A DNA stretch of 17,506 nt from a virus (lineage: Duplodnaviria; Heunggongvirae; Uroviricota; Caudoviricetes), in the IMG/VR virus record IMGVR_UViG_3300029873_000373; one strand, 5' to 3'. Below are positions 1-16,137 of this stretch, piece after piece; position 1 is the first letter of the stretch, and each line of letters starts with the position of its first letter. Position numbers and translations under genes: made by a program. Below the pieces are notes generated by a model, which saw only the letters and a list, made by a program, of their open reading frames with translations, ran no database searches and had not been told where the DNA came from.

Positions 1-1083
1 ATGAAAAAATTAACAGTGGCAATTTCTGCTGTAGCTGCATCAGTACTGATGGCGATGTCTGCTCAGGCAGCTGAAATTTATAATAAAGACAGTAACAAGC
101 TGGATCTGTACGGGAAAGTTAATGCTAAGCACTATTTCTCCTCTAATGATGCAGATGATGGTGATACTACTTATGCCCGTCTTGGCTTCAAAGGTGAAAC
201 CCAAATCAACGATCAACTGACTGGTTTCGGTCAGTGGGAATATGAATTCAAAGGCAACCGCGCTGAATCTCAAGGTTCCTCCAAAGATAAAACCCGTCTT
301 GCCTTCGCTGGCCTGAAATTCGGTGACTACGGCTCAATCGATTACGGCCGTAACTACGGTGTAGCATACGACATCGGTGCGTGGACTGACGTTCTGCCAG
401 AATTCGGTGGCGATACCTGGACCCAAACAGATGTGTTCATGACTGGTCGCACCACTGGTGTTGCAACTTATCGTAACAACGACTTCTTTGGTCTGGTTGA
501 TGGTCTGAACTTTGCTGCTCAGTATCAGGGTAAAAATGACCGCACTGACGTAACTGAAGCTAATGGTGATGGTTTCGGTTTCTCCACTACTTATGAGTAT
601 GAAGGATTCGGTGTAGGTGCAACCTATGCTAAATCTGACCGCACTAATAATCAGGTTATCTACGGTAACAACAGCCTGAATGCATCTGGTCAAAATGCTG
701 AAGTATGGGCAGCTGGTCTGAAATATGATGCGAACAACATCTATCTGGCTACCACCTATTCTGAAACCCAGAACATGACTGTTTTTGGTAATAACCATAT
801 TGCCAACAAAGCACAAAACTTCGAAGTAGTTGCACAATATCAGTTCGACTTCGGTCTGCGTCCGTCCGTTGCTTACCTGCAATCTAAAGGAAAAGACTTG
901 GGTGCGTGGGGTGATCAGGACCTGGTTGAATATATTGATGTAGGTGCAACCTATTACTTCAACAAAAATATGTCCACTTTTGTTGATTACAAAATCAACC
1001 TGATTGATAAGAGCGATTTCACGAAAGCATCTGGCGTTGCTACCGATGATATCGTTGCTGTAGGTATGGTTTACCAGTTCTAA
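1..1083 (+). CDS. nmpC: Outer-membrane general porin (NmpC/Lc/OmpD-like), phage-encoded moron
   Basis: 360-aa ORF; N-terminal signal peptide ending AQA-AEIY; typical 16-strand porin features ([14 protein letters not shown], C-terminal ...VGMVYQF ending in Phe); sits next to Q as in DLP12. Symbol is from recollection of the NmpC sequence, not a search. Confidence 0.88.
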
Positions 1084-1271: not shown

Positions 1272-1655
1272 TTAATTAGAGTTATTAACAACGATATCCA
1301 TCTCTAACCGGATATCTAATGCCATTAACATCCCTTCAATTATGCCCTCAGCCTTCTGTAACCTTTTCCCGATATAACCATCAGAGCAGCAATGCTTACC
1401 TGCCAGTGACATGAATGTCATACCGACTACATAATAATCTACTAATAAATCGTGCAAATCGCTGTTGTTCTTTTTCAGACGGGCCATGCACCCGCAAATA
1501 ATCATCGCGTCATCGTCACAACATTGCGGGCGAGATTTTACTTTTGAAGTAATTAATCCCTTAAAACCGGCGGCAATGGACGACCAGGTCACATCTTCAT
1601 GATTATTAGCCGCCCACGCTCCCCAGCGTTCGAGAACCATCTGAATATCACGCAT
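1272..1655 (-). CDS. Q: Late-gene antitermination protein Q (phage 21 / DLP12 QuuD-like)
   Basis: 127 aa from ATG at 1655 (SD GGAG 7 nt upstream); the track ORF begins at TTG 1670. Cys-rich zinc-binding region ([19 protein letters not shown]); sequence recalled as QuuD-like; position immediately upstream of the porin/late region. Confidence 0.85.
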
Positions 1656-1672
1656 CAACTTTCTCCACAAAA

Positions 1673-2668
1673 TCAGGACAGCACACCAATCGCCAGCGCG
1701 CGATCGATAAAACGAAATATCAGCTCCAGTTGGGAACCATACTTCTCTTCAAATGCCACGGTATCCGCATGTAGTTCGTCATGGTGTTTTCTGCACAAAG
1801 GCAACACAAAAAGGTCATGCGCTTTTGTACCCATTCCACCCTGACCATGACCAATCAGGTGATGAGGATCGTCGGCTGGCTTACCACAACATGCACACGG
1901 CTGCGTCTTAACCCAGCGCGTGTACTTTTCATTAACCCAGCGACGACGTTTGGGGCGTAACATAAAAGACTCCGGCGACTCCGGATCCACTTTCAGCGCC
2001 AGCACCTTTTTCGCCTTATCCCGGATGATGCTGGTGGCAGGAACCGAAGGCACAAGGTCACCTTCCCGGGTGACAGACGGCACAACAGGCTTCGGTAATC
2101 TCAGTGCCTTACGGGCTGCACTTTCCGGTAAGGCATCCGCCAGGTCATTACGAACCAGCCACCAGCACAGTTCCGGCATTGTCACAACGTGGCTGTCATC
2201 AAAACCGAGATCACGACGGACTACGGACAACACCCAGCGGGCACAGTTATCCGTTGCCATTGATTCCAGACGTTCCGTGAACTGATCGCGAAGCAGGTTA
2301 TCGCAGTGCCAGCACAGACGGATTGCGCCCGGCGCGTGTCGCATTGTGGTCATGTTCTCGCTGTGCCATCCGGAATGAGGCCACTGGCAGCCTTTTTCAC
2401 GAAGTAACCAGCTCTCAAGGCATTCCACGCCACCAGCACGACGGATCACCGCCTCATGGCGGAACACGGCCCGAACGGCAGGATCATCCGCCAGCGGTTG
2501 TGATGCTGCCGGAACGGCACCACTGGCAAAAGATGAATAACGTTCCGGCTCAGGCTCCAGCAGGACACGCCCCTGCATAAACAGGGGCATCAGCTCTGAA
2601 CCGGGTCTGAACAAGACGATCCCCATACGCGGGGCAATTTCAGGGGTCAGCAGTGCTCTCACGGTCAC
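1673..2668 (-). CDS. Nin-region phage protein with C-terminal DUF968-like Cys/His motif (putative HNH-like nuclease fold)
   Basis: 331-aa ORF; C-terminus [43 protein letters not shown]. Start uncertain: GTG 2668 lies inside the GAGG of the SD; GTG at 2662 has better spacing. Confidence 0.7.
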
Positions 2669-2714
2669 CTCAGCGAACGGTATTGCATGAACGCAGGAGA
2701 AAAAAATTCAGCCA

Positions 2715-2972
2715 TCACGCAGTAAACTCCTTCACCAGCGTTTCAAACTGGCTTACCTGTCCTTCCAGTTCCGCCACGCAATCCACCAGCTCATCCACCG
2801 CCTTTTGTGTGCGGTGTTTTGCCTGCAGCAGATCACGAAGCGCCGGAGTAAGCTGCTTGCGGAGCGTATCTTTTTTCACGCTCGTTTTTTCCATCTGTTC
2901 AGCACAACGAAGCATCTCCTGCGCCTGCCGACGAAGTTGTTCCGGTGAAACAGTGATTGTTCTGTTGTTCAA
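2715..2972 (-). CDS. Hypothetical small phage protein (85 aa)
   Basis: ORF with TTG start overlapping the helicase stop (TTGA); GGAG 8-9 nt upstream; helical-looking sequence; function unknown. Confidence 0.45.
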   Translation of the reverse strand: MNNRTITVSPEQLRRQAQEMLRCAEQMEKTSVKKDTLRKQLTPALRDLLQAKHRTQKAVDELVDCVAELEGQVSQFETLVKEFTA

Positions 2973-4369
2973 AATAAACGCTCCGTTTTACTGCCCGACA
3001 TGCGGTTATTGCTGTATCTGCGCGGATTGCCCGGCGTCATGGGTGTGGAAAGAACCCGGGCACTCTCCTGGTCCACAGGCAGAAAATGTCCGTTATGAAA
3101 ACGCCGGTAAATGGTCCCGAGTGTGCCATTACGCTGTTTCGTGATGTTGATTTCTGCTATGCCTCTGGCCTGTGTATCCGGGTTATACACCTCATCCCTG
3201 TAAAGCATCAGAATGATGTCGGCATCAGCCTCTATTTCCCCGGAGTTTTTCAGGTCTGAGTTCATGGGACGTTTATTGGGTCTGGATTCCACGCCTCGGG
3301 AGAGCTGGCTCAGAGCAATCAGCGGGAAACCGCCGGATTTTGCCAGGCTTTTAAGTCCCTTTGAGATTTCCCCCACAGCAAGGTCGTGACGCCCCGTGCT
3401 GCGGGTTTTAATCAGACCGAGGTAATCGACCACCACCAGCGCCGTTTCCGGGTGTTTCATCCGGTGGTGCTTCGTGGTTGCACATATCTCATCAATGGTC
3501 AGGTTTGCCTGATCCACCATCCAGATATTACGCCCCGTCATTCGTCCCACGCCCTGCGAGAAACGCGCCCAGTCTTCATCTTCAAAACGGGCAACAGACT
3601 TAAGACGGGATACCGGCATTCCACCGGCAGCAGACACCATACGTTCACCAATCTGGATGTTCGCCATCTCCATGGTGAACAGAAGCACGCCATGCCCCTG
3701 CTCAGTCACCTTGTCGATGATGTCCAGCGCAAGTTCGGTTTTCCCCATCGAAGGACGGGCGGCAATGAATACCAGGTCACCGGGCTCCATACCGCCCGTT
3801 TTTGCGTCCAGTTCATCAATACCGGTCATCAGCGCCCTGGATTTCTCCAGTCCCTGATTGCGGCATTCAACACGGTCGACCACTTCCGGAAGGACATCAT
3901 CAATGTGAACCGGCTGAATGACGCCCTTTCCGGTCGACAGTGAGGCCATCATGTTCTGCACATCCTTCAGGGCATCCTCGGCTGCTTCACAGGTATACGC
4001 ATCACGTAAATTCTGTAATGCTTCAGTCAGTGTTTTTTCTGCATCGCGCAGTGCGGCATTGCGCCGCAACGCTGCGACATAGTGCTCCAGTGAAGACTTC
4101 ACCCAGGTTTTGCGTCCGGTGTCGGTAATCACCGGGGCAAGTTCCGGCATCTCATTGCACAGCAGTACGGGGTCAATGACGCCGGATATGCGAGCCTGTC
4201 TGCAAATCCCCGCGTAAATATCCCGGTACTGACGCACAAAAAATACATCCGCCGGAAGTGTGGCCAGAATATCCATCACTTCCGGATCGGCCCCACGCAG
4301 AAAAAACGCACCGATGACAGCGCCTTCCAGGTCATCGTTACGCCATGCCGGGGTGTTCTGGCTGGTCAT
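2969..4369 (-). CDS. Replicative DNA helicase, DnaB family (phage-encoded)
   Basis: 466 aa; Walker A in DnaB context (FIAARPSMGKTELALD); N-terminal DnaB-like helical domain; start ATGA-overlaps the stop of the upstream loader gene. Confidence 0.9.
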   Translation of the reverse strand: MTSQNTPAWRNDDLEGAVIGAFFLRGADPEVMDILATLPADVFFVRQYRDIYAGICRQARISGVIDPVLLCNEMPELAPVITDTGRKTWVKSSLEHYVAALRRNAALRDAEKTLTEALQNLRDAYTCEAAEDALKDVQNMMASLSTGKGVIQPVHIDDVLPEVVDRVECRNQGLEKSRALMTGIDELDAKTGGMEPGDLVFIAARPSMGKTELALDIIDKVTEQGHGVLLFTMEMANIQIGERMVSAAGGMPVSRLKSVARFEDEDWARFSQGVGRMTGRNIWMVDQANLTIDEICATTKHHRMKHPETALVVVDYLGLIKTRSTGRHDLAVGEISKGLKSLAKSGGFPLIALSQLSRGVESRPNKRPMNSDLKNSGEIEADADIILMLYRDEVYNPDTQARGIAEINITKQRNGTLGTIYRRFHNGHFLPVDQESARVLSTPMTPGNPRRYSNNRMSGSKTERLF

Positions 4370-5265
4370 GCGGCAACACCTCCGATACGAGAACGGTAGC
4401 TGGGCCAGTTAAACGACAACCAGTTGCGCCCGCCATCGGTGATCCTGTCGGCAATCCGGGGACTGATGAACGCCCACAATTCTTCCGGTGAAAGGTTGCT
4501 GATCAGGATAGTTGGCAAAATACCCTCATACCGGGCATTGATAATTTCCTGCAAAATGGCCATTTCAGCCGCACTGCCAAACTGAACGCCGACTTCGTCG
4601 ACAATCAGCAAATCCAGTGACGCATAATGCTCAATGACGTCATCCGCTGTTTTTTCACTGTCATTCCGCCAGCAGTTTTTCACAGCCCGGGTAAGGCGCA
4701 TCACGTCGGTGATCTCCACACTGGCCAGATAGTTACGGATGATGTGTTTTGCCATTGATACCGCCAGATGATTTTTCCCGGTACCGCAACTGCCGGTCAT
4801 AACAAGACTGGTACCGTTCTCCAGCATATCTGGCCAGTTCTCCGCATAGCGGCGACAGGCCGCAAGATTTCTGGCTGCGTCAGGATTAACCTCCAGATAA
4901 TTATCAAACTCGCAGTCCCGAAAACGCAGAGCAATTCCGGCGTTATCAGTCAGTTCTTCCGCCTTGAGGGACGACAGTTCCATGGTCAAATCACTGGCCT
5001 CAGCGATCAAGCAGTCAGGGCAGCATGAAATTTTTTCTCTGTCCTCGCCATTACGATCGATCCACACCAGTATATGCGTACGATATTTACCGTGTTTTTC
5101 GCAATATCCGCGACCTTCACGCATCAGGCAGGAACGATAAGGCCATGGCTTTTCGCCCTTCTGAGCAAATGCAATCTCTGCCCGTAACTCATCCATTTCT
5201 GCCCGTAACTCATCCATTCGCGCCTGTAGTCTTGTTTGTTTCTCACGTTGGTCAATCGTCATCAT
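4366..5265 (-). CDS. DnaC-like helicase loader / IstB-type AAA+ ATPase
   Basis: Walker A (TGSCGTGKNHLAVS) and Walker B (LLIVDEVG). The track starts at GTG 5274, but ATG 5265 has better SD spacing (GAGGTG-N6-ATG). Contains a 21-bp perfect tandem duplication (MDELRAE x2). Confidence 0.85.
   Translation of the reverse strand: MMTIDQREKQTRLQARMDELRAEMDELRAEIAFAQKGEKPWPYRSCLMREGRGYCEKHGKYRTHILVWIDRNGEDREKISCCPDCLIAEASDLTMELSSLKAEELTDNAGIALRFRDCEFDNYLEVNPDAARNLAACRRYAENWPDMLENGTSLVMTGSCGTGKNHLAVSMAKHIIRNYLASVEITDVMRLTRAVKNCWRNDSEKTADDVIEHYASLDLLIVDEVGVQFGSAAEMAILQEIINARYEGILPTILISNLSPEELWAFISPRIADRITDGGRNWLSFNWPSYRSRIGGVAA
5177..5218. repeat. Perfect 21-bp tandem duplication (TCTGCCCGTAACTCATCCATT x2) inside the DnaC-like gene
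   Basis: Two identical adjacent 21-mers at 5177-5197 and 5198-5218; in frame (7-aa repeat MDELRAE). Confidence 0.9.
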
Positions 5266-5275
5266 CGCTGTCACC

Positions 5276-6268
5276 TCAGAATGTCAATTTGTTACTGGAT
5301 TTACCGAATTTGTCAGACATGGCTCCCAGGCCAGCCAGGACATCGACCTGTCGCTGTCGCCCACCTCCGTGAGCGGCTGGCTGTTGCCAGTAATCTTCGA
5401 AGTGACGATCGGGTCCAAAGAACGTCGCAGCCTGCTTCACGAACTGTGTGCCGGTATTTCCTGTAGCACGTACCCAGGCGGCATACCGCTTCACGCCATC
5501 AAGCATGGTCTCCGGTTTTATTCCCTCCCTGATACGGGCTTTCCAGGCTTTGAAGGCTGCTGACTTGGAATTGCCACCAGCACGTTTGGGATATTCCTGC
5601 CAGGCCTGTTCAAATTCCGGTGAATATTCCTGTCGGGCAGAACGCGCTGGCGCAGACGCGTCAGCGGATGCATCAATAGTGTTTTTAGTCTCCGTTGTAA
5701 TCTCTGTAGTAATCTCTGTATTTGTATCAACATTCGGCGTATCCCCTGTTCCGTTATGACGTCGGGGGGTGTTCCGTTTTAACGTAATAGCTGTATCGCT
5801 GATTGCATTATTGCTGTTACTTTCTGGCGAAACAGAAGAAGGTGTGGTGATGGCCGCAATTGCCTGTGGGTTGATCCCGACAAACAAAATATTGCTGCAT
5901 TTCACCCCATCGAGCATTTCCACCGTGCGTAAATCCAGAGTAATAAACCCTGCATCGCGCAGACGCTTCAGCGCATCTGCGGTTTCCCTTTTCCCGAAAC
6001 CAAACTGCTCAGCAAACGCCTGGTAGCTTCTTTGCAGTTTGTCGCCCTGAAAACGCTTGCGATATCCCAGCAACGCTCCGGTGTGCTCATCCCTGACCTC
6101 TGTCGGGCGGTACCAGTAAACGATCTCTGAAAGCAGAGCGATAGCCGTCGCATCCGGACGCCCACTGGGTAGTCGAATATATTTCCACCAGTTCGCAGGT
6201 GTAACATTGCCGGAAATATTAATTTGACCAATAGCCATAACTTCCGGTGTGGGGGCGTAACGGCTCAT
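5276..6268 (-). CDS. Phage replication initiator (lambda O-like replisome organiser)
   Basis: 330 aa; strong SD AAGGAGGT before ATG 6268; N-terminal winged-helix-like domain; central low-complexity linker (TEITTEITTE) encoded by iteron-like DNA repeats; immediately upstream of the DnaC-like and DnaB-like genes. Confidence 0.65.
   Translation of the reverse strand: MSRYAPTPEVMAIGQINISGNVTPANWWKYIRLPSGRPDATAIALLSEIVYWYRPTEVRDEHTGALLGYRKRFQGDKLQRSYQAFAEQFGFGKRETADALKRLRDAGFITLDLRTVEMLDGVKCSNILFVGINPQAIAAITTPSSVSPESNSNNAISDTAITLKRNTPRRHNGTGDTPNVDTNTEITTEITTETKNTIDASADASAPARSARQEYSPEFEQAWQEYPKRAGGNSKSAAFKAWKARIREGIKPETMLDGVKRYAAWVRATGNTGTQFVKQAATFFGPDRHFEDYWQQPAAHGGGRQRQVDVLAGLGAMSDKFGKSSNKLTF
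5697..5720. repeat. Iteron-like 12-bp tandem direct repeat (GTAATCTCTGTA x2) inside the initiator gene; candidate origin element
   Basis: Two perfect 12-mers at 5697-5708 and 5709-5720 with related flanking partial copies; located in the inter-domain linker of the O-like gene, as lambda ori is in O. Confidence 0.45.
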
Positions 6269-6564
6269 ACAACCTCCTTCCGCGGCATGAGAATTGTGTA
6301 GCCACGCGCAGGTTGTAGTCTGGCTTTTGCATCAATAGTAAGCGTTGCAATTTTTCGGATATGAAGATAACCAGCTCTTTCCAGTGCCAGGGTTTCCCTG
6401 AATATCGCTTGCTTAGAACAACAGCAGAAATCAGCAAGCACCTGATGATCAATAACTCTCTCGCCTTCACCGTCTGAAGAACCCGACATCAAAACACGCA
6501 ACATAATCAGGCGCTGAATCGGGTTATCGAAAGCACATCCGCACACAAACTGAAAACAGTTCAC
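6265..6564 (-). CDS. Hypothetical early protein (99 aa), possible winged-helix DNA-binding
   Basis: GTG start with SD GGGAGGTG; GTGA overlap with the upstream gene and ATGA overlap with the initiator gene. Confidence 0.5.
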   Translation of the reverse strand: MNCFQFVCGCAFDNPIQRLIMLRVLMSGSSDGEGERVIDHQVLADFCCCSKQAIFRETLALERAGYLHIRKIATLTIDAKARLQPARGYTILMPRKEVV

Positions 6565-6785: not shown

Positions 6786-6976
6786 GGACGCACCTCCGCC
6801 GTAGTTACGTATTTAACCGGGCTACCTTTCATTGAGATGGTTTCACACATCTCTGCCGCTTTCAGTTCCGCTGTTTTTCTGGATTTATAGCGACGGTGCC
6901 AGACAGATACATCCGTGCGAACTGATACATCGTTTCTGTATTCCGTAGTGGAGATGATGATTTCGTAACTAATCAT
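6782..6976 (-). CDS. Hypothetical small phage protein (64 aa)
   Basis: ATG 6976 preceded by AAGGAGGT; ATGA overlap with the Rha-like gene stop. Confidence 0.45.
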   Translation of the reverse strand: MISYEIIISTTEYRNDVSVRTDVSVWHRRYKSRKTAELKAAEMCETISMKGSPVKYVTTAEVRP

Positions 6977-7833
6977 GGGCGAACCTCCTTGTCAGAACCA
7001 TTCAGCCTGGAATCAACAAGTGCAGCGCCAAAAACAGCATCACCAACACGGTCGTACAGTTTGCTAGCCAGCGGAGATTCAACGGCCTTAAGCATTGGAT
7101 AAAGCTGGCTTGTCCAGATTTGATGGATTTCACGCAAATGCAGGTATACGCCTCTGGCGTTTCGTGCGACAGCTGACATATCAGACGCATCGGCACCTGA
7201 TAAACTCTTCTCCATCAGGTTAAAGGCGTTGATGTATGCCTCTTTGAACCGGGCAGCACGTTTACCAGTGAAGCCCATGGCAAGAAACGCAAAACCGTCG
7301 CGGGTGATTTGGTAACAAGGGAGCTTGCGTGTACCACCGTTCGGTTGATTTACCGAAATCGATGTCTCCGCAAAATTGCGGGCACAAAACTCAGGGGAAC
7401 AATCCAGAGTGCGGATCTTTTTCAGCACATCGTCATGACGCTTGGAGAAGAAGTTGGCAACAGCCAAAGAAGTGGTAACGGCCTGGCCGTTGTCAATGGT
7501 GATTTCAGGTTGAGTGAGGGCTGGGATCGTAGCCATGATGGCAGCCTCCGTTGACAGTGAAAAACTTCCACCACCGGAAACGCCAATTTCACTGGTGGTG
7601 AACTGGACGGGGTTGGCGTAACCGGCGTCAACGGAGACCGGCGCACCTTTCGGTGCCCCCGCCCAGCCCACCATAATCTGGATGTGAGCAAATGCGGACG
7701 ATAAAAAAGACGCTGGCGCGTCATACATCGCCGTTGACAATTTCAGGACGCCAATCCCGGCACCCGCTTTATAAGGTGCGGAGACAGTGTAACGTCCCGG
7801 AATTGCAGAATCAATATGCTGGTGGCGGATCAT
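6973..7833 (-). CDS. Rha-family phage regulatory protein with a ~99-aa N-terminal module of unknown function
   Basis: Rha-like core ITIDNGQAVTTSLAVANFFSKRHDDVLKKI ... TRDGFAFLAMGFTGKRAARFKEAYINAFN; ATG 7833 has SD GGGAGGTG. An in-frame internal ATG at 7536 with SD GGAGG lies exactly at the module/Rha junction. Confidence 0.7.
   Translation of the reverse strand: MIRHQHIDSAIPGRYTVSAPYKAGAGIGVLKLSTAMYDAPASFLSSAFAHIQIMVGWAGAPKGAPVSVDAGYANPVQFTTSEIGVSGGGSFSLSTEAAIMATIPALTQPEITIDNGQAVTTSLAVANFFSKRHDDVLKKIRTLDCSPEFCARNFAETSISVNQPNGGTRKLPCYQITRDGFAFLAMGFTGKRAARFKEAYINAFNLMEKSLSGADASDMSAVARNARGVYLHLREIHQIWTSQLYPMLKAVESPLASKLYDRVGDAVFGAALVDSRLNGSDKEVRP
7537..7833. repeat. Copy 1 of a ~300-bp duplicated coding module (N-terminal domain of the first Rha paralog)
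   Basis: Near-identical DNA to 8193-8492, e.g. shared CCCGCTTTATAAGGTGCGGAGACAGTGTAACGTCCCG and GACGATAAAAAAGACGCTGGCGCGTCATA. Confidence 0.85.
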
Positions 7834-8492
7834 AGGTGCACCTCCCGTTGATTACGACGGAACGCGGAGTGACCCTGGACGGTTTCAGCCTCATGGAATG
7901 CTTCAATACAGCTCTCGTAGTACCGCATTGTGCGCAGACTTAACCCAAGCTGAAGCATCATCAGACCATCAAGGGTGATGTAATAACCACGCAGGGAGTC
8001 ACCGTAGATGTGATAAGTACCCGGTATGAAATTGCGGGTAAAAAACCCGCGTGAGCAGTTCAGATACTCGATTTTGTCAACGATGTTCTGGTGCATGCGC
8101 TTGAAATGGCAGGCAACATGCAGGGAGAAAATAACGGCCTTGCCGTTGACGACTTCGATTTTTAGGAATGGGGAAGTTAGGACAGTAGCCATGATGGCAG
8201 CCTCCGTATGCAATGGATAACTTCCACCACCGGAGCTGCGAAACTCATGGGTGGTGAACTGAACAGGGTTCGCAGTACCGGCGCATACGGAAACCGGCGA
8301 GCCTTTCGGCTCCCCTGCCCAGCCCACCATAATTCTGGCGTGCGTGAGCGCGGACGATAAAAAAGACGCTGGCGCGTCATATATCGCCGTATGCAATTCC
8401 GGGCTGCGACCCCCGGCACCCGCTTTATAAGGTGCGGAGACAGTGTAACGTCCCGAAATTGCAGAATCAATATTTGGTCTTGAAATGATCAT
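7830..8492 (-). CDS. Rha-family regulatory protein paralog (divergent Rha domain) carrying the same N-terminal module
   Basis: N-terminal 100 aa about 75% identical to the adjacent gene; Rha-like IEVVNGKAVIFSLHVACHFKRMHQNIVDKI. ATG 8492 has no SD; internal ATG 8192 has GGAGG and may be the true start. Confidence 0.6.
   Translation of the reverse strand: MIISRPNIDSAISGRYTVSAPYKAGAGGRSPELHTAIYDAPASFLSSALTHARIMVGWAGEPKGSPVSVCAGTANPVQFTTHEFRSSGGGSYPLHTEAAIMATVLTSPFLKIEVVNGKAVIFSLHVACHFKRMHQNIVDKIEYLNCSRGFFTRNFIPGTYHIYGDSLRGYYITLDGLMMLQLGLSLRTMRYYESCIEAFHEAETVQGHSAFRRNQREVHL
8193..8492. repeat. Copy 2 of the ~300-bp duplicated coding module
   Basis: Same as above; differences are substitutions only, many at third codon positions of the minus-strand frame. 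Confidence 0.85.
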
Positions 8493-8576: not shown

Positions 8577-8601
8577 AGCCGGGTTACTCCCGGCTTTTTT
8601 T
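8577..8601 (+). terminator. Intrinsic-terminator-like hairpin plus T7 run, oriented for the plus strand, between minus-strand genes
   Basis: AGCCGGG-TTACT-CCCGGCT followed by TTTTTTT (8595-8601), abutting the stop of the 8601-9308 gene; on the minus strand the hairpin is preceded, not followed, by the A/U run. Confidence 0.5.
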
Positions 8602-9308
8602 CACCGCTGCCAACCAATAACCTGAAATAACCCCATTTTCGGGTGATACCAGCGAGTCCCTCGCGGTTCTGCTTCCTCCATAATCCGATAAAAAGCAGCC
8701 ATAAACGGTTCCACAGCAACAATTGCGCGACGTGACAACAATCCGTCCGGCGTCATGAACTCATGGGTGTCTGTAGGAATCTGATAGGCGTTCACCAGAT
8801 TGCGGCATTTATCATCTGACAAACCGGTTTTTGCTTTCAGTTGGCGATATCCGGCATAGCCCTCACGAATAGTGCCCTTTTTAATTTGCTCGACTGTTTC
8901 AGCAACGTGGCTGACTTTTTCTTCCACCTGAGTGATCCGTTTCTGTTGGCGAACGGCTTCAAGAGCCATCGCGGCAACCATTTCGATTTCGCTCATTGGC
9001 TTACGGATCTGTTCTTCCAGTTCGCGCCAGCGATCTACCAGGCGAGCTGTGAATTCAGGACAGAGCTGTGCGACGACAATGATGCTGTCGCGCTTACCTC
9101 GTTCACCTTCGAATACATACGCGCTAGAAAATCGGCGAGGCCCAAGTGATTGTTTATTCTCAATTTCCACAGTCTGTGGAAATTGGATGATTCCCTTTTT
9201 AGCCAGTGTTTCAATAGTTCTCTTAACACTATCTGGTCGGCTTCCCACCAGCTCTGCGATCTCAACGCTGGTCATGGATGCTTTGCCGTTAAAAATTGCG
9301 GTGTTCAT
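8601..9308 (-). CDS. Rha-family phage regulatory protein (antirepressor-like)
   Basis: 235 aa; N-terminal MTSVEIAELVGSRPDSVKRTIETLAKKGII fits the Rha-domain pattern; coiled-coil-like middle; SD AGGAGA before ATG 9308. Confidence 0.7.
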   Translation of the reverse strand: MNTAIFNGKASMTSVEIAELVGSRPDSVKRTIETLAKKGIIQFPQTVEIENKQSLGPRRFSSAYVFEGERGKRDSIIVVAQLCPEFTARLVDRWRELEEQIRKPMSEIEMVAAMALEAVRQQKRITQVEEKVSHVAETVEQIKKGTIREGYAGYRQLKAKTGLSDDKCRNLVNAYQIPTDTHEFMTPDGLLSRRAIVAVEPFMAAFYRIMEEAEPRGTRWYHPKMGLFQVIGWQR

Positions 9309-9549: not shown

Positions 9550-9622
9550 GATACTTTGTTATCCAACGATGTTAACCATAGGAACCCAAAGTATCAAGAA
9601 ATTCTGTTACTTTAGTATCAAC
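9550..9622. promoter_or_regulatory. Rightward-operator/promoter-like region (divergent PR/PRM analogue) with repeated operator motif
   Basis: Motif CAAAGTATCAA at 9587-9597, TTTAGTATCAAC at 9611-9622 and inverted GATACTTTG at 9550-9558. Candidate minus-strand promoter: -35 TTGATA (rc of 9592-9597), 17-bp spacer, -10 TAACAT (rc of 9569-9574). Confidence 0.5.
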
Positions 9623-9643
9623 AGCCATGAGAGGAGAAGAAAA

Positions 9644-10300
9644 ATGAAGTCTTTAGGTGAACGTCTCATCAACGCACGGCAAAAAGCTGGGTTAACACAA
9701 GATGCGTTGGCTAAAAAAGCTGGGGTCACCAGAGTTGCAATAAGTAAAGCCGAGCAAGGCCTTACAAAAAGTTTCAACGGTGACACCCTTTTTAAAGTTG
9801 CAGCTGCACTGCGGTGTTCACCGCAGTGGCTTCAGAACGGAGATGAAAAAGATAAGCATTGGGAAAATAATGTTAAGAGCTGCCCACAGAGAGACACAGC
9901 ACACTCTTACCCTGTAATTAACTGGGTTCAGGCAGGATTATTCGCAACTTCTGGTGATGACTACAACATGTATGATCAGGATAATTGGAGGCATTCTGTA
10001 AAATACGCTGGTGAGAGGGGGTTCTGGCTGGAAGTGCACGGAGACTCAATGACTTCGCCCGTAGGAATAACATTTCCTGAAGGAATGTCGATCCTTGTCA
10101 ACCCAGATAAAGAAGTTTTTTCAGGGTGTTACGTCATCGCCAGAAAAAAATCCACCAATGAAGCAACATTCAAAAAATATATTTCTGACATGGGAAAGGC
10201 GTTTCTAAAGCCCCTTAATCCACAATATCCAATCATAGAAATGGACAATGATTGCGAAATAGTAGGTGTTGTGGTTGATGCCAGATGGGATATTTTCTGA
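9644..10300 (+). CDS. cI: CI-like prophage repressor (XRE-family HTH plus LexA/S24 peptidase-like C-terminal domain)
   Basis: 218 aa; SD GAGGAGAAG before ATG 9644; HTH LINARQKAGLTQDALAKKAGVTRVAISKAEQG; S24 catalytic context GDSM ... ATFKKY; divergent from the early-right operon. Confidence 0.9.
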   Translation: MKSLGERLINARQKAGLTQDALAKKAGVTRVAISKAEQGLTKSFNGDTLFKVAAALRCSPQWLQNGDEKDKHWENNVKSCPQRDTAHSYPVINWVQAGLFATSGDDYNMYDQDNWRHSVKYAGERGFWLEVHGDSMTSPVGITFPEGMSILVNPDKEVFSGCYVIARKKSTNEATFKKYISDMGKAFLKPLNPQYPIIEMDNDCEIVGVVVDARWDIF

Positions 10301-10305
10301 CCAGA

Positions 10306-10333
10306 CACAAAACACAAAACACAAAACACAAAA
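10306..10333. repeat. Perfect heptamer tandem repeat (CACAAAA)x4
   Basis: Four exact 7-bp units directly after the cI stop codon and before the leftward operator motif. Confidence 0.9.
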
Positions 10334-10338
10334 AGAAA

Positions 10339-10386
10339 CCAAAGTATCAAAAATCACTTGCCACGACTTGATACCTTAGTTACCAT
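10339..10386 (+). promoter_or_regulatory. Leftward-operator/promoter-like region (PL/OL analogue)
   Basis: Same operator motif as the rightward region: CCAAAGTATCAA (10339-10350) and inverted TTGATACCTTAG (10368-10379). Candidate promoter -35 TTGCCA (10358-10363), 17-bp spacer, -10 TACCAT (10381-10386). Confidence 0.45.
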
Positions 10387-10417
10387 AAAACAAAGTTCGT
10401 AACTGAGGTATCATCTC

Positions 10418-10921
10418 ATGATCAATAAAGCTACAACTCTTGACTGTCTCGAAGAACTGAAAAACCTCGGCAGCCTCATTACACTAATAGCAAAAGCAAC
10501 ACCTGATGCTACGCTCTCTAGCGATATAGAGTCATGCGCAGGACTGGCATGGGATATGACAAATAGCATATCCAGAAAGCTATCGTCAGCAATGCTTTTA
10601 CAGAACAAAAATTCTGCAATCAACAACCGTCTTCGCACCCAACGCGAAGCCTGCGGCTTAACAACCGCCGAACTCGCCAGGCTGCTCGATCTCGATGAAG
10701 AAATCATCATTCAGTGGGAGAGCGGAGAGTATGAACCAACCATCAGTATGCTTATCCCACTGGCAAATATTCTTGGCTGCGATCCGATGTGGCTGTTAAC
10801 TGGCGAGGTTACTCCTCCGGAGCAACCAAAAAGTGAGGAGCAGCAACACCATGACGCATCTCAACAAGTTTGCCCCTTATCTCGCGAAGCTCTTCTGCGG
10901 AAGAACCAATACCAATGGTGA
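10418..10921 (+). CDS. XRE-family HTH protein with ~70-aa N-terminal extension, in the position lambda N occupies
   Basis: 167 aa; SD TGAGGT before ATG 10418; HTH LRTQREACGLTTAELARLLDLDEEIIIQWESGEYEPTISMLIPLANILGCDPMWLLTGE; no arginine-rich N-like motif. Confidence 0.6.
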   Translation: MINKATTLDCLEELKNLGSLITLIAKATPDATLSSDIESCAGLAWDMTNSISRKLSSAMLLQNKNSAINNRLRTQREACGLTTAELARLLDLDEEIIIQWESGEYEPTISMLIPLANILGCDPMWLLTGEVTPPEQPKSEEQQHHDASQQVCPLSREALLRKNQYQW

Positions 10922-11049
10922 CATAATCGCCGCTTCGCCCTTCAAGGTACATGCGAACATTTTTATCAATCATTGCGGAAACAGTCTCAATATGAAAACA
11001 CTTCTGAGACTCGCTATATAGCAGAACATATAAGTCAGCTGAGGAAGCC

Positions 11050-11415
11050 ATGAAAAAGTTCGAAAACATAACTGTTCTCCATGTTGATGACTTTGATTAT
11101 ACAAACCCGGAACTTCTCCCGGAGGTTGTAAAGGCAATAGATGTTGCCGATATAGTGATTAGAGAAAAGAGAATTGTCAAAAACAGGCTCGCATGCACTT
11201 CAGGAGCAATGACAGAAACAACCTCACAGCAAGATAATTACGAAGGCATTTGCCTGGAGCCTGATTCATTTGCAATAAATGTTTATCATTTATTGCATGC
11301 AACACAGGTATTACATATGTCCAGTAATCACGAAACGAAAACACTCGGCAGCGAAATTCTGAATTTTGCATGTGAGTATACAAAAGCTGCTGCCGAAAAA
11401 GAATTAGCGCAATAA
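11050..11415 (+). CDS. Hypothetical protein (121 aa), AT-rich accessory gene
   Basis: SD GAGGAAG before ATG 11050; about 35% GC; no recognisable motif. Confidence 0.6.
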   Translation: MKKFENITVLHVDDFDYTNPELLPEVVKAIDVADIVIREKRIVKNRLACTSGAMTETTSQQDNYEGICLEPDSFAINVYHLLHATQVLHMSSNHETKTLGSEILNFACEYTKAAAEKELAQ

Positions 11416-11493
11416 CAACAAATATGCCCTGAACGTTTATTGCGGTTTTATCGCCGGGGATTGTTACAACCTTAATCCACAGGAGGCTTTATT

Positions 11494-11607
11494 GTGACTT
11501 TTATAAAGAATATGGCATCACACAAGACCGCCTGCCTTATTGCACAATACGGTGAAAATTACATGCATATTGCCTGCTTATTTCTGCGTAAAGCATACGG
11601 GAGATAA
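11494..11607 (+). CDS. Candidate small ORF (37 aa) with perfect SD, absent from the ORF track
   Basis: AGGAGG, 7-nt spacer, GTG 11494; stops at TAA 11605-11607 just before the next gene's start. Confidence 0.3.
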   Translation: MTFIKNMASHKTACLIAQYGENYMHIACLFLRKAYGR

Positions 11608-11609
11608 TA

Positions 11610-11798
11610 ATGCATCAGAAAACAGCAGAACACGAACAAACCAGAGTATTGCTGACCATCAAAAACGGGAAAGTAATATTCATTCGCCATGTTCATGACG
11701 ATGAACTTGTAGGAAATCTTTCAACATTCCTGTTTATTGCAGAAAAGGCAGGATATGACGTTATTGCACCAGCAGATGAAGATGAAGATGAGGAATAA
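11610..11798 (+). CDS. Hypothetical small protein (62 aa) with acidic C-terminal tail (PADEDEDEE)
   Basis: SD GGGAGA before ATG 11610; highly acidic C-terminus. Confidence 0.55.
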   Translation: MHQKTAEHEQTRVLLTIKNGKVIFIRHVHDDELVGNLSTFLFIAEKAGYDVIAPADEDEDEE

Positions 11799-11803
11799 AT
11801 ATC

Positions 11804-12385
11804 ATGCAATACGATGAATTCCAGGCTGAAGCAACAGCCAATGGTATACGAACTGGCAGTATGACGATTGATTATCACGACGCCATACGTCGTCTGGATG
11901 CCGGAGAATTCGATACTCCTAATGTGCGAGGTTTACGTATCCTTCAGTGTCTGGCGCAAGCCGACGAAGCAGGATTACTGGGTAAACTTCCGGTTGAGAT
12001 GAAGGTTGCTCAGTGGCGATGGTTGTATGTGACGACATTCATCAACGAAGAAGAAGACAAGAACGGCACAATTGATATCCTGAATGAACACGGAACAACT
12101 GAACACGCCGTGGTATATAACGGGATGTATGGGTTTATGACGATATATCCCGGCCCCATTCGATTTGCCTTACAACAGTATATTGAATGGAATTTAATTC
12201 AAAAATACGGCGAAGCTGAAGGAATGGGAAGAGCGCTGTTTCTTTATCAGAAAATGCTCACTACTTCCCCTGATAAAGGTTTCATTCTTTCAGATATGGG
12301 TCGAGAAGGGCTTGAAATCCTTCTGGATGAAATTATTAACGAAATGAATACTCATGGCATGCAATCCGAAACAGATATTAAGTAA
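11804..12385 (+). CDS. Hypothetical protein (193 aa)
   Basis: ATG 11804 starts 5 nt after the previous stop; no recognised domain. Confidence 0.6.
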   Translation: MQYDEFQAEATANGIRTGSMTIDYHDAIRRLDAGEFDTPNVRGLRILQCLAQADEAGLLGKLPVEMKVAQWRWLYVTTFINEEEDKNGTIDILNEHGTTEHAVVYNGMYGFMTIYPGPIRFALQQYIEWNLIQKYGEAEGMGRALFLYQKMLTTSPDKGFILSDMGREGLEILLDEIINEMNTHGMQSETDIK

Positions 12386-12395
12386 AAGGGACCAC

Positions 12396-12644
12396 ATGAC
12401 CGTTATCGAGTATATCCAGGAAAATCCAGATTGCAGTAGAGAAGATATATCCCTCGCACTTGGAAGAAGCGCAACTTCTATCAGTAATGAATTATCACGG
12501 TTATTGTGGAATGGGTTAATAGTACGAACTGGAGAAAAAAACAAAATGATTCTGTACTGCGTAAACAATCTGCCGTTTGGATACAGCAATCCCCTAAGTG
12601 TTATGTTCAACCAGTTACTTAAACAGGTAAGAAATGGCAACTGA
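12396..12644 (+). CDS. Small winged-helix-like DNA-binding protein (82 aa)
   Basis: SD AAAGGGA before ATG 12396 (track ORF starts upstream at 12354, inside the previous gene); HTH-like CSREDISLALGRSATSISNELSRLLWNGLIV. Confidence 0.55.
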   Translation: MTVIEYIQENPDCSREDISLALGRSATSISNELSRLLWNGLIVRTGEKNKMILYCVNNLPFGYSNPLSVMFNQLLKQVRNGN

Positions 12645-12924
12645 CTCACAACTAACCATAGAAACGGCCCTGAATGTCGGCCTGGCGCTCCTTGGTTATT
12701 TTTACATCGTGTTCTGCAGCGGACGGTGGCTGTCGCTGTTGTTCCTGAAAAAATGGAATAAACGCCGTAAGCAGGATGAACGCCAGAAGGCATTAGAAGC
12801 GTTCTATGACGCATTTGAGCTTAGCCGCATTGAACCAGGTACAACAGCCAGGATAGCGACAAAAGGCGACCTGATGATAGTGATGTTCCGACAGGAGAGA
12901 GCAGAGAAAGGGGAATCAGCATGA
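12634..12924 (+). CDS. Small membrane protein (96 aa, one predicted transmembrane helix)
   Basis: Hydrophobic segment ALNVGLALLGYFYIVFCSGRWLSLLFL followed by a basic stretch; overlaps both neighbours (coupling). Confidence 0.55.
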   Translation: MATDSQLTIETALNVGLALLGYFYIVFCSGRWLSLLFLKKWNKRRKQDERQKALEAFYDAFELSRIEPGTTARIATKGDLMIVMFRQERAEKGESA

Positions 12925-13661
12925 AATTTTCCAAATTTTCTGAGTTGGTGAATCGTATTTTGTCCAACAACCACAGCCATCGTCGCGATATGGATGTAAC
13001 GATCGTTGTTCATTCGCCTGGCAGCATTGGTTCAACACCCTCAGTTGAAGTTCAGTCAATTCACGCTGGTTTTGATTGGGATTCCGGGAAAGTGCTGATT
13101 TTCCCAGCACAGCCACTGACCACTCTAACACCAGAACAGATTACTGATATTACTGATAGTGTGCGCAAAGGTCAGTCCTGGCACGCATATCAGGAATACA
13201 AGAAGCATAAAGAGCAGTTGGAAAAATTATCGATTGAACTTGATGCCGCAAAACAGCGCATTGCAGAGCTGGAGGGTAATTTCACGGCGCTGGCAGCGGA
13301 GAATGCGGGAATAAAGTCTGCAATTCCAGAATCACGGGATATTGAAGATGACAATGACAATATGGATGACGTATCTCTCGCGGAAGACTTCGGGTTCAAT
13401 CATGCAATAGAACGGATGAGGAGACAGATACCTGAAACGCCAACCACTGATGCTTTCCTGGCTGAAGTCCGGGCGCAGGGGGTGGATGCTGCTATAGAAG
13501 CTGCAAAAAATCTGGTGGCCCAAGAATATGAGTATAAGGATTTCAAAGCGGCGCAGAGTGATTGCTGTATGTACCCTGGTTCAGACCTGGTAGGGAAGGT
13601 TGAAATGACTGAGTGGTTAGTTGACTTTGCTGCCCAGCTTCGCAAAGGAGGCAACCAGTGA
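12921..13661 (+). CDS. Hypothetical coiled-coil phage protein (246 aa)
   Basis: ATGA overlap upstream; central heptad-like region (KEQLEKLSIELDAAKQRIAELEGNFTALAAENAGIK) and acidic stretch. Confidence 0.6.
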   Translation: MKFSKFSELVNRILSNNHSHRRDMDVTIVVHSPGSIGSTPSVEVQSIHAGFDWDSGKVLIFPAQPLTTLTPEQITDITDSVRKGQSWHAYQEYKKHKEQLEKLSIELDAAKQRIAELEGNFTALAAENAGIKSAIPESRDIEDDNDNMDDVSLAEDFGFNHAIERMRRQIPETPTTDAFLAEVRAQGVDAAIEAAKNLVAQEYEYKDFKAAQSDCCMYPGSDLVGKVEMTEWLVDFAAQLRKGGNQ

Positions 13662-14143
13662 GCGAAATTAATTACCAGGCACTGCGTGAGGTGGCGGAAC
13701 GTGCAATTCCAGCAATGGAACGCCTGTTAATGTTGCCAGCTGATGATGACTTGTTAAGTGAACAGGAACTTAAAGATTACGGTGTGGATATTGATGCGCT
13801 CAACGCCTTCAAATTTCTGACCGGACCAGAAACCGTGCTGGCACTGCTGGATGAACGGGAAAGAAACCTGCAATACATCAAAAGCCGCGATCAGGAGAAC
13901 GAGGATATTGCGCTAACGGTAGGGAAGCTGCGCGTTGAGCTTGAAGCAGAAAAACAGCGGGCAAAAGTTCTATTTATGGAAAATGCTCGGCTTAAGTCAG
14001 GCATAGCCGGTCTGATACACCTCGGTATTCGATATGCAGATGTTGAGGTCATGAAAATTGCTGGAGATGCCCAGCTTTCTACCCCATGCACTGACAGCAT
14101 CATAAACAGCATTGCAACAGGCATTCGCATCAAAGGAGAGTGA
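13658..14143 (+). CDS. Hypothetical coiled-coil protein, possibly Ead/Ea22-like (161 aa)
   Basis: GTG start with strong SD AAGGAGG and GTGA overlap; the N-terminus MSEINYQALREVAERA recalls Ea22-like prophage proteins (recollection only). Confidence 0.55.
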   Translation: MSEINYQALREVAERAIPAMERLLMLPADDDLLSEQELKDYGVDIDALNAFKFLTGPETVLALLDERERNLQYIKSRDQENEDIALTVGKLRVELEAEKQRAKVLFMENARLKSGIAGLIHLGIRYADVEVMKIAGDAQLSTPCTDSIINSIATGIRIKGE

Positions 14144-14144
14144 T

Positions 14145-14660
14145 ATGGCGTTAACACACCACGAACTCTGTCAGATTGCGTACAAGTTCCTTAAGCGCAA
14201 CGGGTTCAAGGTTTGCTTTCATGACCGCTTTGTTGCTGTAACCAGTACCGGAGAACAGCCAGATGCTATGGGATTCAGAAATTCAGCATCATGCCTGATA
14301 GAGGCGAAGTGTTCTCGTGCTGACTTGTTGGCAGATAGAAAAAAGCGTTTCCGTAAAAATCCCTCACTTGGCATGGGCGACTGGCGATTCTTTATTAGTG
14401 AGCCGGAAATTATTTCAGTTGAGGATTTACCTCCCGGCTGGGGATTACTTCACGTTGTTAACGGAAGAGTACGGAAAGTACATGGATGGCCCAGGGGTAA
14501 TTGCTGTTGGGGTAATCCTGACGATAAGCCATTTACTGGGAATAAGCAGGTTGAATGCGATTACATGTTATCTGCATTAAGGCGCATGGAGTTGAGAGGG
14601 CACCTTAATGAAATATATGACGGTGTGATTGTTAATAAGAAAGAAGGAAACGCGGCATGA
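14145..14660 (+). CDS. Candidate PD-(D/E)xK-fold nuclease (171 aa)
   Basis: SD AAAGGAGAG before ATG 14145; motif arrangement GEQPDAMGF ... CLIEAKCSRADL resembles the PD ... ExK catalytic core of restriction-endonuclease-like nucleases. Confidence 0.5.
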   Translation: MALTHHELCQIAYKFLKRNGFKVCFHDRFVAVTSTGEQPDAMGFRNSASCLIEAKCSRADLLADRKKRFRKNPSLGMGDWRFFISEPEIISVEDLPPGWGLLHVVNGRVRKVHGWPRGNCCWGNPDDKPFTGNKQVECDYMLSALRRMELRGHLNEIYDGVIVNKKEGNAA

Positions 14661-15415
14661 TCACTATTACCAAAGGGCGACTGCTGACAATCAAGCAGTG
14701 GCGCGAAACATACGGACCGGGTAGCAACGTTGTACTGCCAGCAGAAGAAGCGGAAGAACTGGCACGAATTGCACTGATATCGCTGGAAGCAGAGCCGGTG
14801 GCAAAGATTATAGCTCATTACCCATTAGGAGTTGACGTAGGCAAACAAAAGTTCGTGCAGGCCATTGGAGAGCTTCCTGACTTTGGCGGATATCTATTTG
14901 CCGCCCCGCCAGCGCCGGTAGTGCCGGAAGAAGCAACTCCGGAAAACGTAGAAATGCTCTCTGGCTATGTTTCCACGTACAAATTAACCGATAGCGAGCG
15001 CGATATTGCTGCCGAAATATGGAACGCCTGCCGCACCGCCATGCTTCAGTCCGGAAACTTTCGGGAAAGCAAGAATTCGTCAACCAATAATTTTCGGGAA
15101 ATCCCGGAAGCGTCAACCAGCTCTCCGGTAACTCCGGCTCTTCTGCCTGGTGGTTTCACCATTGAGGAGGCGAAGGAATTACATGAAGACCTGGTACGCA
15201 GCCACATAAGCAAGGCCTTAAGTGGCGAAAAGATGAAAAAGAAAGATCGCGATGCTGATTTGCGCTGGATTCATGGCGTTATAGTTCAGGCAGCGTGGTT
15301 TGTAAAAGCATCACTGGAGCAGAATGCACTATCGGGCAACTCTCCGGTAACTCCGGATGGTTGGATAAGCTGTAGTGAGCGAATGCCGGACGACAGGCAG
15401 GAGGTGAATCAATGA
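14657..15415 (+). CDS. Prophage protein with DUF551-like C-terminal motif (252 aa) and internal repeats
   Basis: ATGA overlap upstream; C-terminal PDGWISCSERMPDD resembles the start of the DUF551 domain (recollection); 33-bp imperfect tandem repeat and 17-bp exact repeat inside the gene. Confidence 0.6.
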   Translation: MITITKGRLLTIKQWRETYGPGSNVVLPAEEAEELARIALISLEAEPVAKIIAHYPLGVDVGKQKFVQAIGELPDFGGYLFAAPPAPVVPEEATPENVEMLSGYVSTYKLTDSERDIAAEIWNACRTAMLQSGNFRESKNSSTNNFREIPEASTSSPVTPALLPGGFTIEEAKELHEDLVRSHISKALSGEKMKKKDRDADLRWIHGVIVQAAWFVKASLEQNALSGNSPVTPDGWISCSERMPDDRQEVNQ

Positions 15416-15495
15416 GCTGGCCTGATGCAATCGTAACTCTGGGGGTGGTATTCGCAGCAGCGTTTGTTGTGTTCTCGATTTGTCGATGGGGATAA
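15412..15495 (+). CDS. Small hydrophobic peptide (27 aa, MSWPDAIVTLGVVFAAAFVVFSICRWG), absent from the ORF track
   Basis: Strong SD AGGAGGTGA 5-6 nt before ATG 15412, which overlaps the upstream stop (ATGA); one predicted transmembrane helix; ends 5 nt before the next gene. Confidence 0.45.
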   Translation: MSWPDAIVTLGVVFAAAFVVFSICRWG

Positions 15496-15499
15496 CCAC

Positions 15500-15742
15500 A
15501 TGTTCGCTTTGATTCAACGCGGTCAGATATACACGGACAGAGCCGGATACCCCGTGGTGATTACTCGCATCACTGAGCACTCAGTGTTCTTTCGACGGAT
15601 GGACGGACGATCCGGGCGGGTACGCATTGGTGAGTTAAACTGCCTGTTCGAACATATTGACCACCAGGAGTACCGCAAAATTCTCGCGGACACTGAGCAG
15701 GAAAAGCACCTGAAAAAATTACGAGCCATAAAAAGGAAGTAA
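15500..15742 (+). CDS. Small conserved prophage protein (80 aa; DUF4222-like by recollection)
   Basis: ATG 15500 directly after the small-peptide stop; MFALIQRGQIYTDRAGYPVVITRITEHSVFFRR-type sequence common next to xis in enterobacterial prophages. Confidence 0.6.
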   Translation: MFALIQRGQIYTDRAGYPVVITRITEHSVFFRRMDGRSGRVRIGELNCLFEHIDHQEYRKILADTEQEKHLKKLRAIKRK

Positions 15743-15745
15743 AGA

Positions 15746-15892
15746 ATGAATAAAGCATTTGAACGATGGGTCCACCAGCGTTACGGCAATCGCTATGACC
15801 TGACGCGAGATGTTGACGGCTTCTACTGTCGTGAAGTTGTGAAGCGAATGTTTGAAGTGTGGTGCCACTGCCGTGGGCTGAGTGTTGTGTGA
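15746..15892 (+). CDS. Small Cys/His-containing ORF (48 aa), absent from the ORF track
   Basis: SD AAGGAAG 7 nt before ATG 15746; MNKAFERWVHQRYGNRYDLTRDVDGFYCREVVKRMFEVWCHCRGLSVV; fills the gap up to xis exactly. Confidence 0.4.
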   Translation: MNKAFERWVHQRYGNRYDLTRDVDGFYCREVVKRMFEVWCHCRGLSVV

Positions 15893-15900
15893 GGTAATAC

Positions 15901-16137
15901 ATGGGCAATGTGATTCAACTGGCTCCCAATGAATGGGTTTGTGAAAGCGTTCTTATCGCAATTACCGGGCTCAAACCAGGCACAATTCTTCGGGCCCGGA
16001 AAGAATGCTGGATGGTTGGAAGAGAGTATATTCACGTATCACCAGACGGTAATCCAAAGCCTTCCAGTGAATGTATGTATAACAGAAAAGCAATAGATGC
16101 CTGGGTCGCCTCAATGAAAAACAAACAACCCAGGTGA
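15901..16137 (+). CDS. xis: Excisionase-like protein
   Basis: 78 aa directly upstream of the integrase; SD GAGG before ATG 15901; sequence type (...EWVCESVLIAITGLKPGTIL...GREYIHVSPDG...) matches enterobacterial prophage excisionase-like proteins. Confidence 0.75.
   Translation: MGNVIQLAPNEWVCESVLIAITGLKPGTILRARKECWMVGREYIHVSPDGNPKPSSECMYNRKAIDAWVASMKNKQPR

Follow-up and report, generated by a model that had tools for sequence, protein, structure and literature searches.

What does the small gene at positions 14145-14660 of a tailed-phage sequence encode, and what could its product contribute to the phages that carry it? We addressed this question in the IMG/VR virus record IMGVR_UViG_3300029873_000373 (Caudoviricetes), whose whole 17,506-nucleotide (nt) stretch is referred to below as the window; nucleotide positions are numbered on the window, and residues are numbered on the 171-amino-acid (aa) protein. 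A first-pass annotation, made from the letters of the DNA and a list of its open reading frames (ORFs), had read a PD-(D/E)xK catalytic core into this protein from an acidic residue in GEQPDAMGF followed about 12 residues later by IEAK. Conservation, predicted fold, and profile homology all support the nuclease interpretation. We hold with high confidence that the protein has a nuclease fold with an intact active site, and it is very probably a divergent full-length homologue of the MmcB-like/DUF1052 family within the PD-(D/E)xK superfamily. With regard to its role, a lesion- or structure-specific metal-dependent endonuclease for phage DNA repair or recombination is somewhat probable, at slightly better than an even chance.

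Conservation of the putative active site

The reading frame and the position of the motif were both reproduced, with GEQPDAMGF corresponding to residues 36-44 and IEAK to residues 52-55, which places E53 13 residues after D40. The motif alone was discarded as evidence, since the bare pattern D-x(9-16)-[DE]-x-K was found in 39.6% of 2000 shuffles of the protein; it also occurs in 5 of the 21 other proteins of the window. What raises the observation above chance is the conservation of the residues together with the predicted fold and the profile homology described below.

Conservation was counted among 149 family representatives that are non-redundant at 50% identity, with denominators that vary by alignment column. 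D40 was kept in 144 of 145 representatives, and E53 and K55 were each kept in 146 of 147. Comparable values were obtained for an acidic residue (D or E) at position 27 (138/139), for E37 (144/145), and for the residues that follow the catalytic lysine, namely D60 (147/147), D64 (148/149), K67 and R70 (148/148 each), and R81 (148/149). In an alignment of 40 members that share only 34-55% identity with the query, D40, D60, G78, and R81 were invariant, and H5, E37, P39, E53, K55, S57, D64, K67, R70, W99, G100, E137, R146, and R147 were nearly so. The conserved basic residues of the phage family are R58, K67, R70, R81, R146, and R147. One representative, P0147, has H at the position of E53 and V at that of K55 and is devoid of the FR...P loop; this protein is probably an inactive nuclease variant.

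Predicted fold

The AlphaFold2 model of the protein, obtained from a close alignment (mean predicted local distance difference test score of 83.6 and predicted template modeling score of 0.79), consists of a helix (residues 5-18), a short strand (22-23), two further strands (41-45 and 48-54), a helix (58-65), and a strand (80-85), followed in the C-terminal half by a hairpin (100-105 and 108-113) and three helices (119-123, 134-150, and 154-159). The alpha-beta-beta-beta-alpha-beta core that characterizes the PD-(D/E)xK superfamily is present in the model, and structure prediction for this core was a test that the first-pass annotation itself had named. Strand 41-45 starts directly after D40, and strand 48-54 ends at E53, followed by K55, so that the protein carries an acidic residue at the start of strand 2 and the (D/E)-x-K element at the end of strand 3, as required of superfamily members. 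A Foldseek search of the PDB returned PD-(D/E)xK proteins as every one of its top matches, and structural similarity to the solved MmcB-like member 3dnx was tested and found. In a Foldseek search of viral predicted structures (BFVD), several entries named "MmcB-like DNA repair protein" were among the significant matches.

Relationship to the MmcB-like family

The MmcB-like family corresponds to Pfam PF06319, formerly DUF1052, and to COG5321; its founder is the MmcB protein of Caulobacter, and the structure 3dnx represents SPO1766 of Ruegeria pomeroyi. Earlier superfamily surveys had put DUF1052/COG5321 beside the archaeal Holliday-junction resolvases (PMC1189080). Searches with the single protein gave little information. 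No NCBIfam match was obtained, a search of PDB sequences produced only chance-level matches, the protein fell below the Pfam gathering threshold for PF06319, and it did not match PF13935, the Ea22/Ead family after which its neighbors are named. The best PHROG matches, 9263 and 631, are of "unknown function", and a weak match was observed to PHROG 5429, a "DNA repair protein".

The relationship became apparent at the level of profiles. When PDB sequences were searched with a shallow alignment (A1), 3dnx appeared at a non-significant E of 0.43, whereas a diverse family alignment (A2) recovered it at E 1.1e-4, with Hjc resolvases at E 0.12-0.29; the significant match to 3dnx was thus obtained only with the diverse alignment. 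Among 40 family members scanned individually, weak Pfam matches to Hjc were found in 24 and to the MmcB-like family in 13 (best MmcB-like E 2.9e-4). The comparison of the phage family with an MmcB-like alignment by hhalign gave a probability of 97.7% with E 1.6e-12 over 102 columns, and the global version of this comparison was collinear over 140 columns (probability of 97.8%), including the C-terminal helix with its RR pair. Homology to the MmcB-like family is therefore detected at the profile level over the whole domain. The global alignment pairs D40, E53, K55, R58, D60, D64, and R81 of the phage protein with D39, E53, K55, R58, D60, D64, and R76 of the MmcB-like proteins, respectively. D27 is aligned with the invariant E28/E29 of these proteins, and the C-terminal SALRR helix is collinear with their AARRL helix.

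The two groups have in common the SRxDFxxDxK stretch after the catalytic lysine, the D/E/K site, and the C-terminal RR helix, but the identity of MmcB-like proteins to the target is only ~25-30%. The target has an insertion of approximately 7 residues, FRKNPSL, and another of approximately 8 residues before the last helix, while the GQxLARG and RGLR motifs that are invariant in MmcB-like proteins are absent from the phage family. The MmcB-like genes are chromosomal and are regulated by the SOS response in Caulobacter (PMC9578287), in contrast to the phage family, which is found in phages and prophages of Enterobacterales, Vibrio, and other bacteria, within phage early operons. The target family is a phage clade that constitutes a new divergent member of the MmcB-like group and brings no new mechanism.

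Distribution of the phage family

A word-index search identified 308 close relatives of the protein, all named "hypothetical protein". The HMMER profile search of 1.84 billion representatives recovered 3307 clusters (50% identity) at E <= 1e-3, including 2438 at E <= 1e-10. By tblastn, the gene was found in 643 phage records, among them many phages converting to Shiga toxin (Stx) 1 and Stx2 production and phage P7 (gene upf89.5, 89016..89528), as well as phages of Klebsiella, Salmonella, Vibrio, Dickeya, Pseudomonas, and Tenacibaculum. The family is carried by temperate phages (lambdoid and P7-like) as well as by virulent ones. On the basis of the phage records and a few contig look-ups that define this taxonomic range, the family is almost entirely phage-borne.

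The DNA of the region is 99.5% identical to that of Escherichia phage PhiR5_1, in which the target is a "hypothetical protein" between two genes called "Ea22". Among 5426 complete E. coli genomes, 928 (17%) contain the gene, at 1297 places, always under the name "hypothetical protein" in the Prokaryotic Genome Annotation Pipeline (PGAP). Plasmids of roughly 60-125 kb account for 248 of the 1297 places; the same nuclease circulates on P1/P7-type phage-plasmids and on integrated lambdoid prophages. In Ackermannviridae (~157 kb) and related large virulent phages, the match is limited to residues 4-113, which comprise the core and exclude the C-terminal helices. An example of this short version is found in Salmonella phage vB_SalM-LPST94 (8021..8353). 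Some short-version loci are labeled "adenylosuccinate synthase", "structural protein", "minor tail protein", or "valyl-tRNA synthetase", labels that look like annotation errors or overlapping features. Our search of the literature on the phage family, on the exo-xis region of Stx phages, and on MmcB in phages found no study of the target gene or its family.

Genomic context

The target gene is one link in a tightly packed chain of genes on the + strand of this lambdoid prophage segment, which begins with a cI-like repressor gene (9569..10297), contains the two Ea22-like genes, and reaches xis (15901) and int (16193). Tight coupling to both neighbors, as claimed by the first-pass annotation, was confirmed by a gap of a single base to the upstream ORF and by an ATGA overlap with the downstream ORF. 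A scan of the + strand for a promoter or terminator belonging to the target gene revealed nothing beyond chance, which fits a polycistronic unit.

The identity of these neighbors had been given as Ea22-like upstream and DUF551-like downstream. The former was confirmed by a PF13935 match at E 4e-31 (13658..14143, +); this gene is joined by a 4-nt GTGA overlap to a preceding one of the same type (12921..13661, +; PF13935, E 4e-9). The latter held only in part, as just residues 235-250 of the 252-aa downstream ORF (14657..15415, +) match positions 1-16 of the 68-position DUF551 profile before the stop codon. The rest of the DUF551 domain looks to have been removed by deletion or recombination, leaving a scar.

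A scan of IMG/VR yielded 480 confirmed loci, of which the best 80 were used for clustering of neighboring genes. The surroundings proved to be mosaic, with an Ea22-like or coiled-coil gene upstream in approximately 25 of the 80 loci and a DUF551-type gene downstream in 24; flanks of these kinds are shared by only some 30% of loci, both int-proximal ones and those of the nin region. The family has two homes, one close to int, as in the window (24 loci), and the other in the nin region between the replication genes and NinB/NinG/Q. Within 4 kb of the homologue, these 80 viral loci contain NinG in 13 cases, NinB in 7, and RusA in 3, the last lying 2.7-2.8 kb downstream. No conserved partner, immunity, sensor, or modification gene was found across the same loci.

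Bacterial genomes provided further examples. A Providencia prophage (GCA_041094335.1, L084 7001..7868) encodes a homologue that is 67% identical to the query in alignment A1 and lies between Dam/Lar and RusA, with its 3' end overlapping the start of RusA. This Providencia locus is a compact nin-region cluster of genes for DNA transactions (Dam methylase, Lar-like restriction alleviation, and RusA). Rahnella prophages again carry the homologue in the nin region, and a 34%-identical member was found on a phage-like contig with PhoH, a T4-type RNA ligase, and a metallophosphatase. A role as a simple replacement for RusA or NinG was ruled out, since the homologue co-occurs with both (NinG in 13 loci and RusA in 4).

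Proposed function and alternative explanations

The family founder, MmcB of Caulobacter crescentus, is an SOS-induced PD-(D/E)XK endonuclease that cells need to withstand mitomycin C and cisplatin; its proposed targets are interstrand crosslinks, on which it would act alongside translesion synthesis (PMC9578287; bioRxiv 10.1101/2022.06.10.495655). By analogy with the superfamily, the acidic residues of the phage protein would coordinate one or two divalent metal ions, with the lysine positioning the attacking water and the conserved arginines and lysines binding the DNA backbone. The enzyme would then cut a phosphodiester bond where the DNA is distorted or branched, for example at a stalled fork, flap, or junction or at a site of damage or crosslinking; neither a particular sequence nor bulk DNA would be its target. 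This would be an accessory phage function in repair or recombination, plausibly useful when DNA damage induces a prophage, in parallel to the Caulobacter protein. A narrow substrate is preferred over a destructive activity because no partner gene was found across the 80 viral loci, because the carriers are both temperate and virulent, because recombination genes are among the neighbors, and because the homologues co-occur with RusA and NinG.

Several observations weigh against assigning a repair or recombination role by way of MmcB. In the literature, we found neither biochemical or genetic data on any member of the phage family nor a defined substrate for MmcB itself. The link to DNA-damage induction is one that we infer ourselves, and virulent phages, which undergo no induction, carry the gene as well. 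The Pfam scan of the protein returned no family at E <= 1, PF06319 included, and the Foldseek search of the PDB gave no match at E <= 0.001, with 3dnx unlisted. H5 and E37 are specific to the phage family as compared with MmcB-like proteins, so the chemistry or the substrate may differ. Finally, the database names of family members are all either "hypothetical" or automatic labels, and the latter are wrong.

The alternative that survives best, while still rather unlikely, is a true Holliday-junction resolvase; as an Hjc-like homodimer, the protein would make symmetric cuts in four-way junctions and take the part that RusA or Rap/NinG play in other lambdoid phages. Hjc cleaves four-way junctions. 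Archaeal Hjc (PF01870, e.g., 1hh1) has the same fold, its IPD...(I/L)E-x-K on strands 2 and 3 matches the target, and both are small stand-alone proteins. RusA (PF05866) and Rap/NinG (PF05766) are, like the target, small accessory nucleases of lambdoid phages and share the nin region with many of its homologues, but they are unrelated to it in fold and family. Processing of recombination intermediates by the target, in the manner of RusA and NinG, is plausible by this analogy; a plain second resolvase is made less likely by the same observations that favor a narrow substrate.

We regard as unlikely the proposal that the protein is a conflict nuclease, which would cut foreign or host nucleic acid in lysogen defense and superinfection exclusion or in anti-defense and host takeover. 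Its genes do reside in the accessory, mosaic, "moron-rich" ea and nin regions where such functions are common, PD-(D/E)xK domains are frequent effectors of defense systems (e.g., the Can2 and Cdn1 matches), and the virulent carriers would suit anti-defense or takeover. However, the PADLOC scan gave no match for the target and only chance-level matches for its neighbors, and no conserved sensor, immunity, or modification partner adjoins the gene in the 80 viral loci. Its location in the early-left unit without a promoter of its own would suggest expression in the lytic cycle rather than from a repressed prophage, which argues against lysogen defense in particular. To our knowledge, lambdoid phages do not degrade host DNA.

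Even less probable is a nuclease fold that does not cut, i.e., a DNA-binding or regulatory protein comparable to some PD-(D/E)xK-fold proteins whose chemistry has been lost. Such a role would fit the loss of E53 and K55 by representative P0147 and the company of the gene, given that Ea22 and other exo-xis genes are reported modulators of the lysis-lysogeny decision and not of DNA metabolism (PMC7093339, PMC3824215). The near-total conservation of catalytic-type residues among members that are so divergent in sequence is, on the contrary, what is expected of an active enzyme. A chance motif in a protein without a nuclease fold, to which the frequency of the bare pattern in shuffles and the lack of matches in Pfam, NCBIfam, and the single-sequence PDB search could point, is already contradicted by the conservation, the predicted fold, and the profile homology, and we consider it highly improbable.

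Feature coordinates and other genes of the window

The features of the target gene are collected in Table 1.

Table 1. Features of the target gene and its junctions within the window.
Feature	Position	Strand	Basis
Gene for the probable phage MmcB-like PD-(D/E)xK nuclease-fold protein, 171 aa plus stop codon	14145..14660	+	ATG at 14145; stop codon ends at 14660
Shine-Dalgarno sequence AGGAG, 6 nt 5' of the ATG, within the end of the upstream Ea22-like gene	14134..14138	+	Read from the sequence
Upstream coupling junction: TGA of the Ea22-like ORF (14141-14143), 1 base, ATG of the target (14145-14147)	14141..14147	+	
Downstream coupling junction ATGA: start of the next ORF (14657..15415) overlaps the target stop codon TGA	14657..14660	+	
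Codon of D27, conserved acidic residue in strand 1, probable additional metal ligand	14223..14225	+	Acidic in 138/139; codon checked
Predicted catalytic core segment GEQPDAMGFRNSASCLIEAK, residues 36-55, with E37, P39, D40 (strand 2), and E53-x-K55 (strand 3)	14250..14309	+	Translation, conservation, model, alignment
Post-catalytic helix and loop CSRADLLADRKKRFRKNPSLGMGDWR, residues 56-81, with near-invariant S57, R58, D60, D64, K67, R70, G78, and R81	14310..14387	+	
C-terminal helical region, residues ~119-160, with conserved E137 and R146-R147 (SALRR)	14499..14624	+	Model helices, conservation, global hhalign

Several other genes of the window were noted. The ORF downstream of the target is named "Ea22" in PhiR5_1; it is followed by ~84 nt of non-coding DNA and then by a DUF4222 gene, whose PHROG match starts at its residue 13, near nt 15500. 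With regard to nucleic acid enzymes, no exo/bet/gam, RecET, or Erf recombinase was found in the early-left chain when the segments 9569..16134 (+) and 1272..6564 (-) were examined, and the window contains no NinB, NinG, or RusA before the Q-like antiterminator (1272..1670). The sole other nuclease-like gene of the window encodes a DUF968/HNH protein (1673..2668, -).

Between the replication genes and the cI-like repressor lies a tandem triple of genes of the Rha/Ash regulator families (6973..7833, 7830..8492, and 8601..9308, all on the - strand). This triplication is unusual and occupies the place expected for genes of the cro/cII type. The Q-like antiterminator is adjoined, in the opposite direction, by a complete Gram-negative porin gene (1..1083, +; PF00267, E 3e-153), which is a phage-borne porin of the Lc/NmpC type. 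The window starts exactly at the ATG of this porin gene and ends exactly at the stop codon of the integrase gene. Long ORFs run antisense to the gene chain at 12290..12814 (-, 174 aa), 2653..3144 (+, 163 aa), and 14808..15116 (-, 102 aa); these most probably represent non-coding shadows of opposite-strand genes, and the one of the three that was compared with PHROG, 2653..3144, had no match.

Biological implications

The outcome is an improved annotation rather than a surprise, a PD-(D/E)xK nuclease in the accessory region of a phage being an ordinary kind of enzyme. It extends the MmcB-like family, which has been described as mostly alphaproteobacterial and chromosomal (PMC3424549), into a large clade of phages. 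The MmcB-like placement also gives a testable function, the metal-dependent cutting of damaged or branched DNA, to a gene that is very common in E. coli and Stx phages and has gone unannotated. If the proposed role in repair is true, the gene could affect the productivity of Stx prophage induction by DNA-damaging drugs. In a stronger version, an MmcB-type phage nuclease would rescue crosslinked or otherwise damaged phage genomes, so that Stx and other lambdoid prophages, once induced by mitomycin C, quinolones, or oxidative damage, would release more viable phage and hence more Shiga toxin; this version is speculative and, in our judgment, improbable. Were it true, the gene would give phages their own equivalent of a bacterial SOS repair function, overlooked by annotation in approximately one in six E. 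coli genomes.
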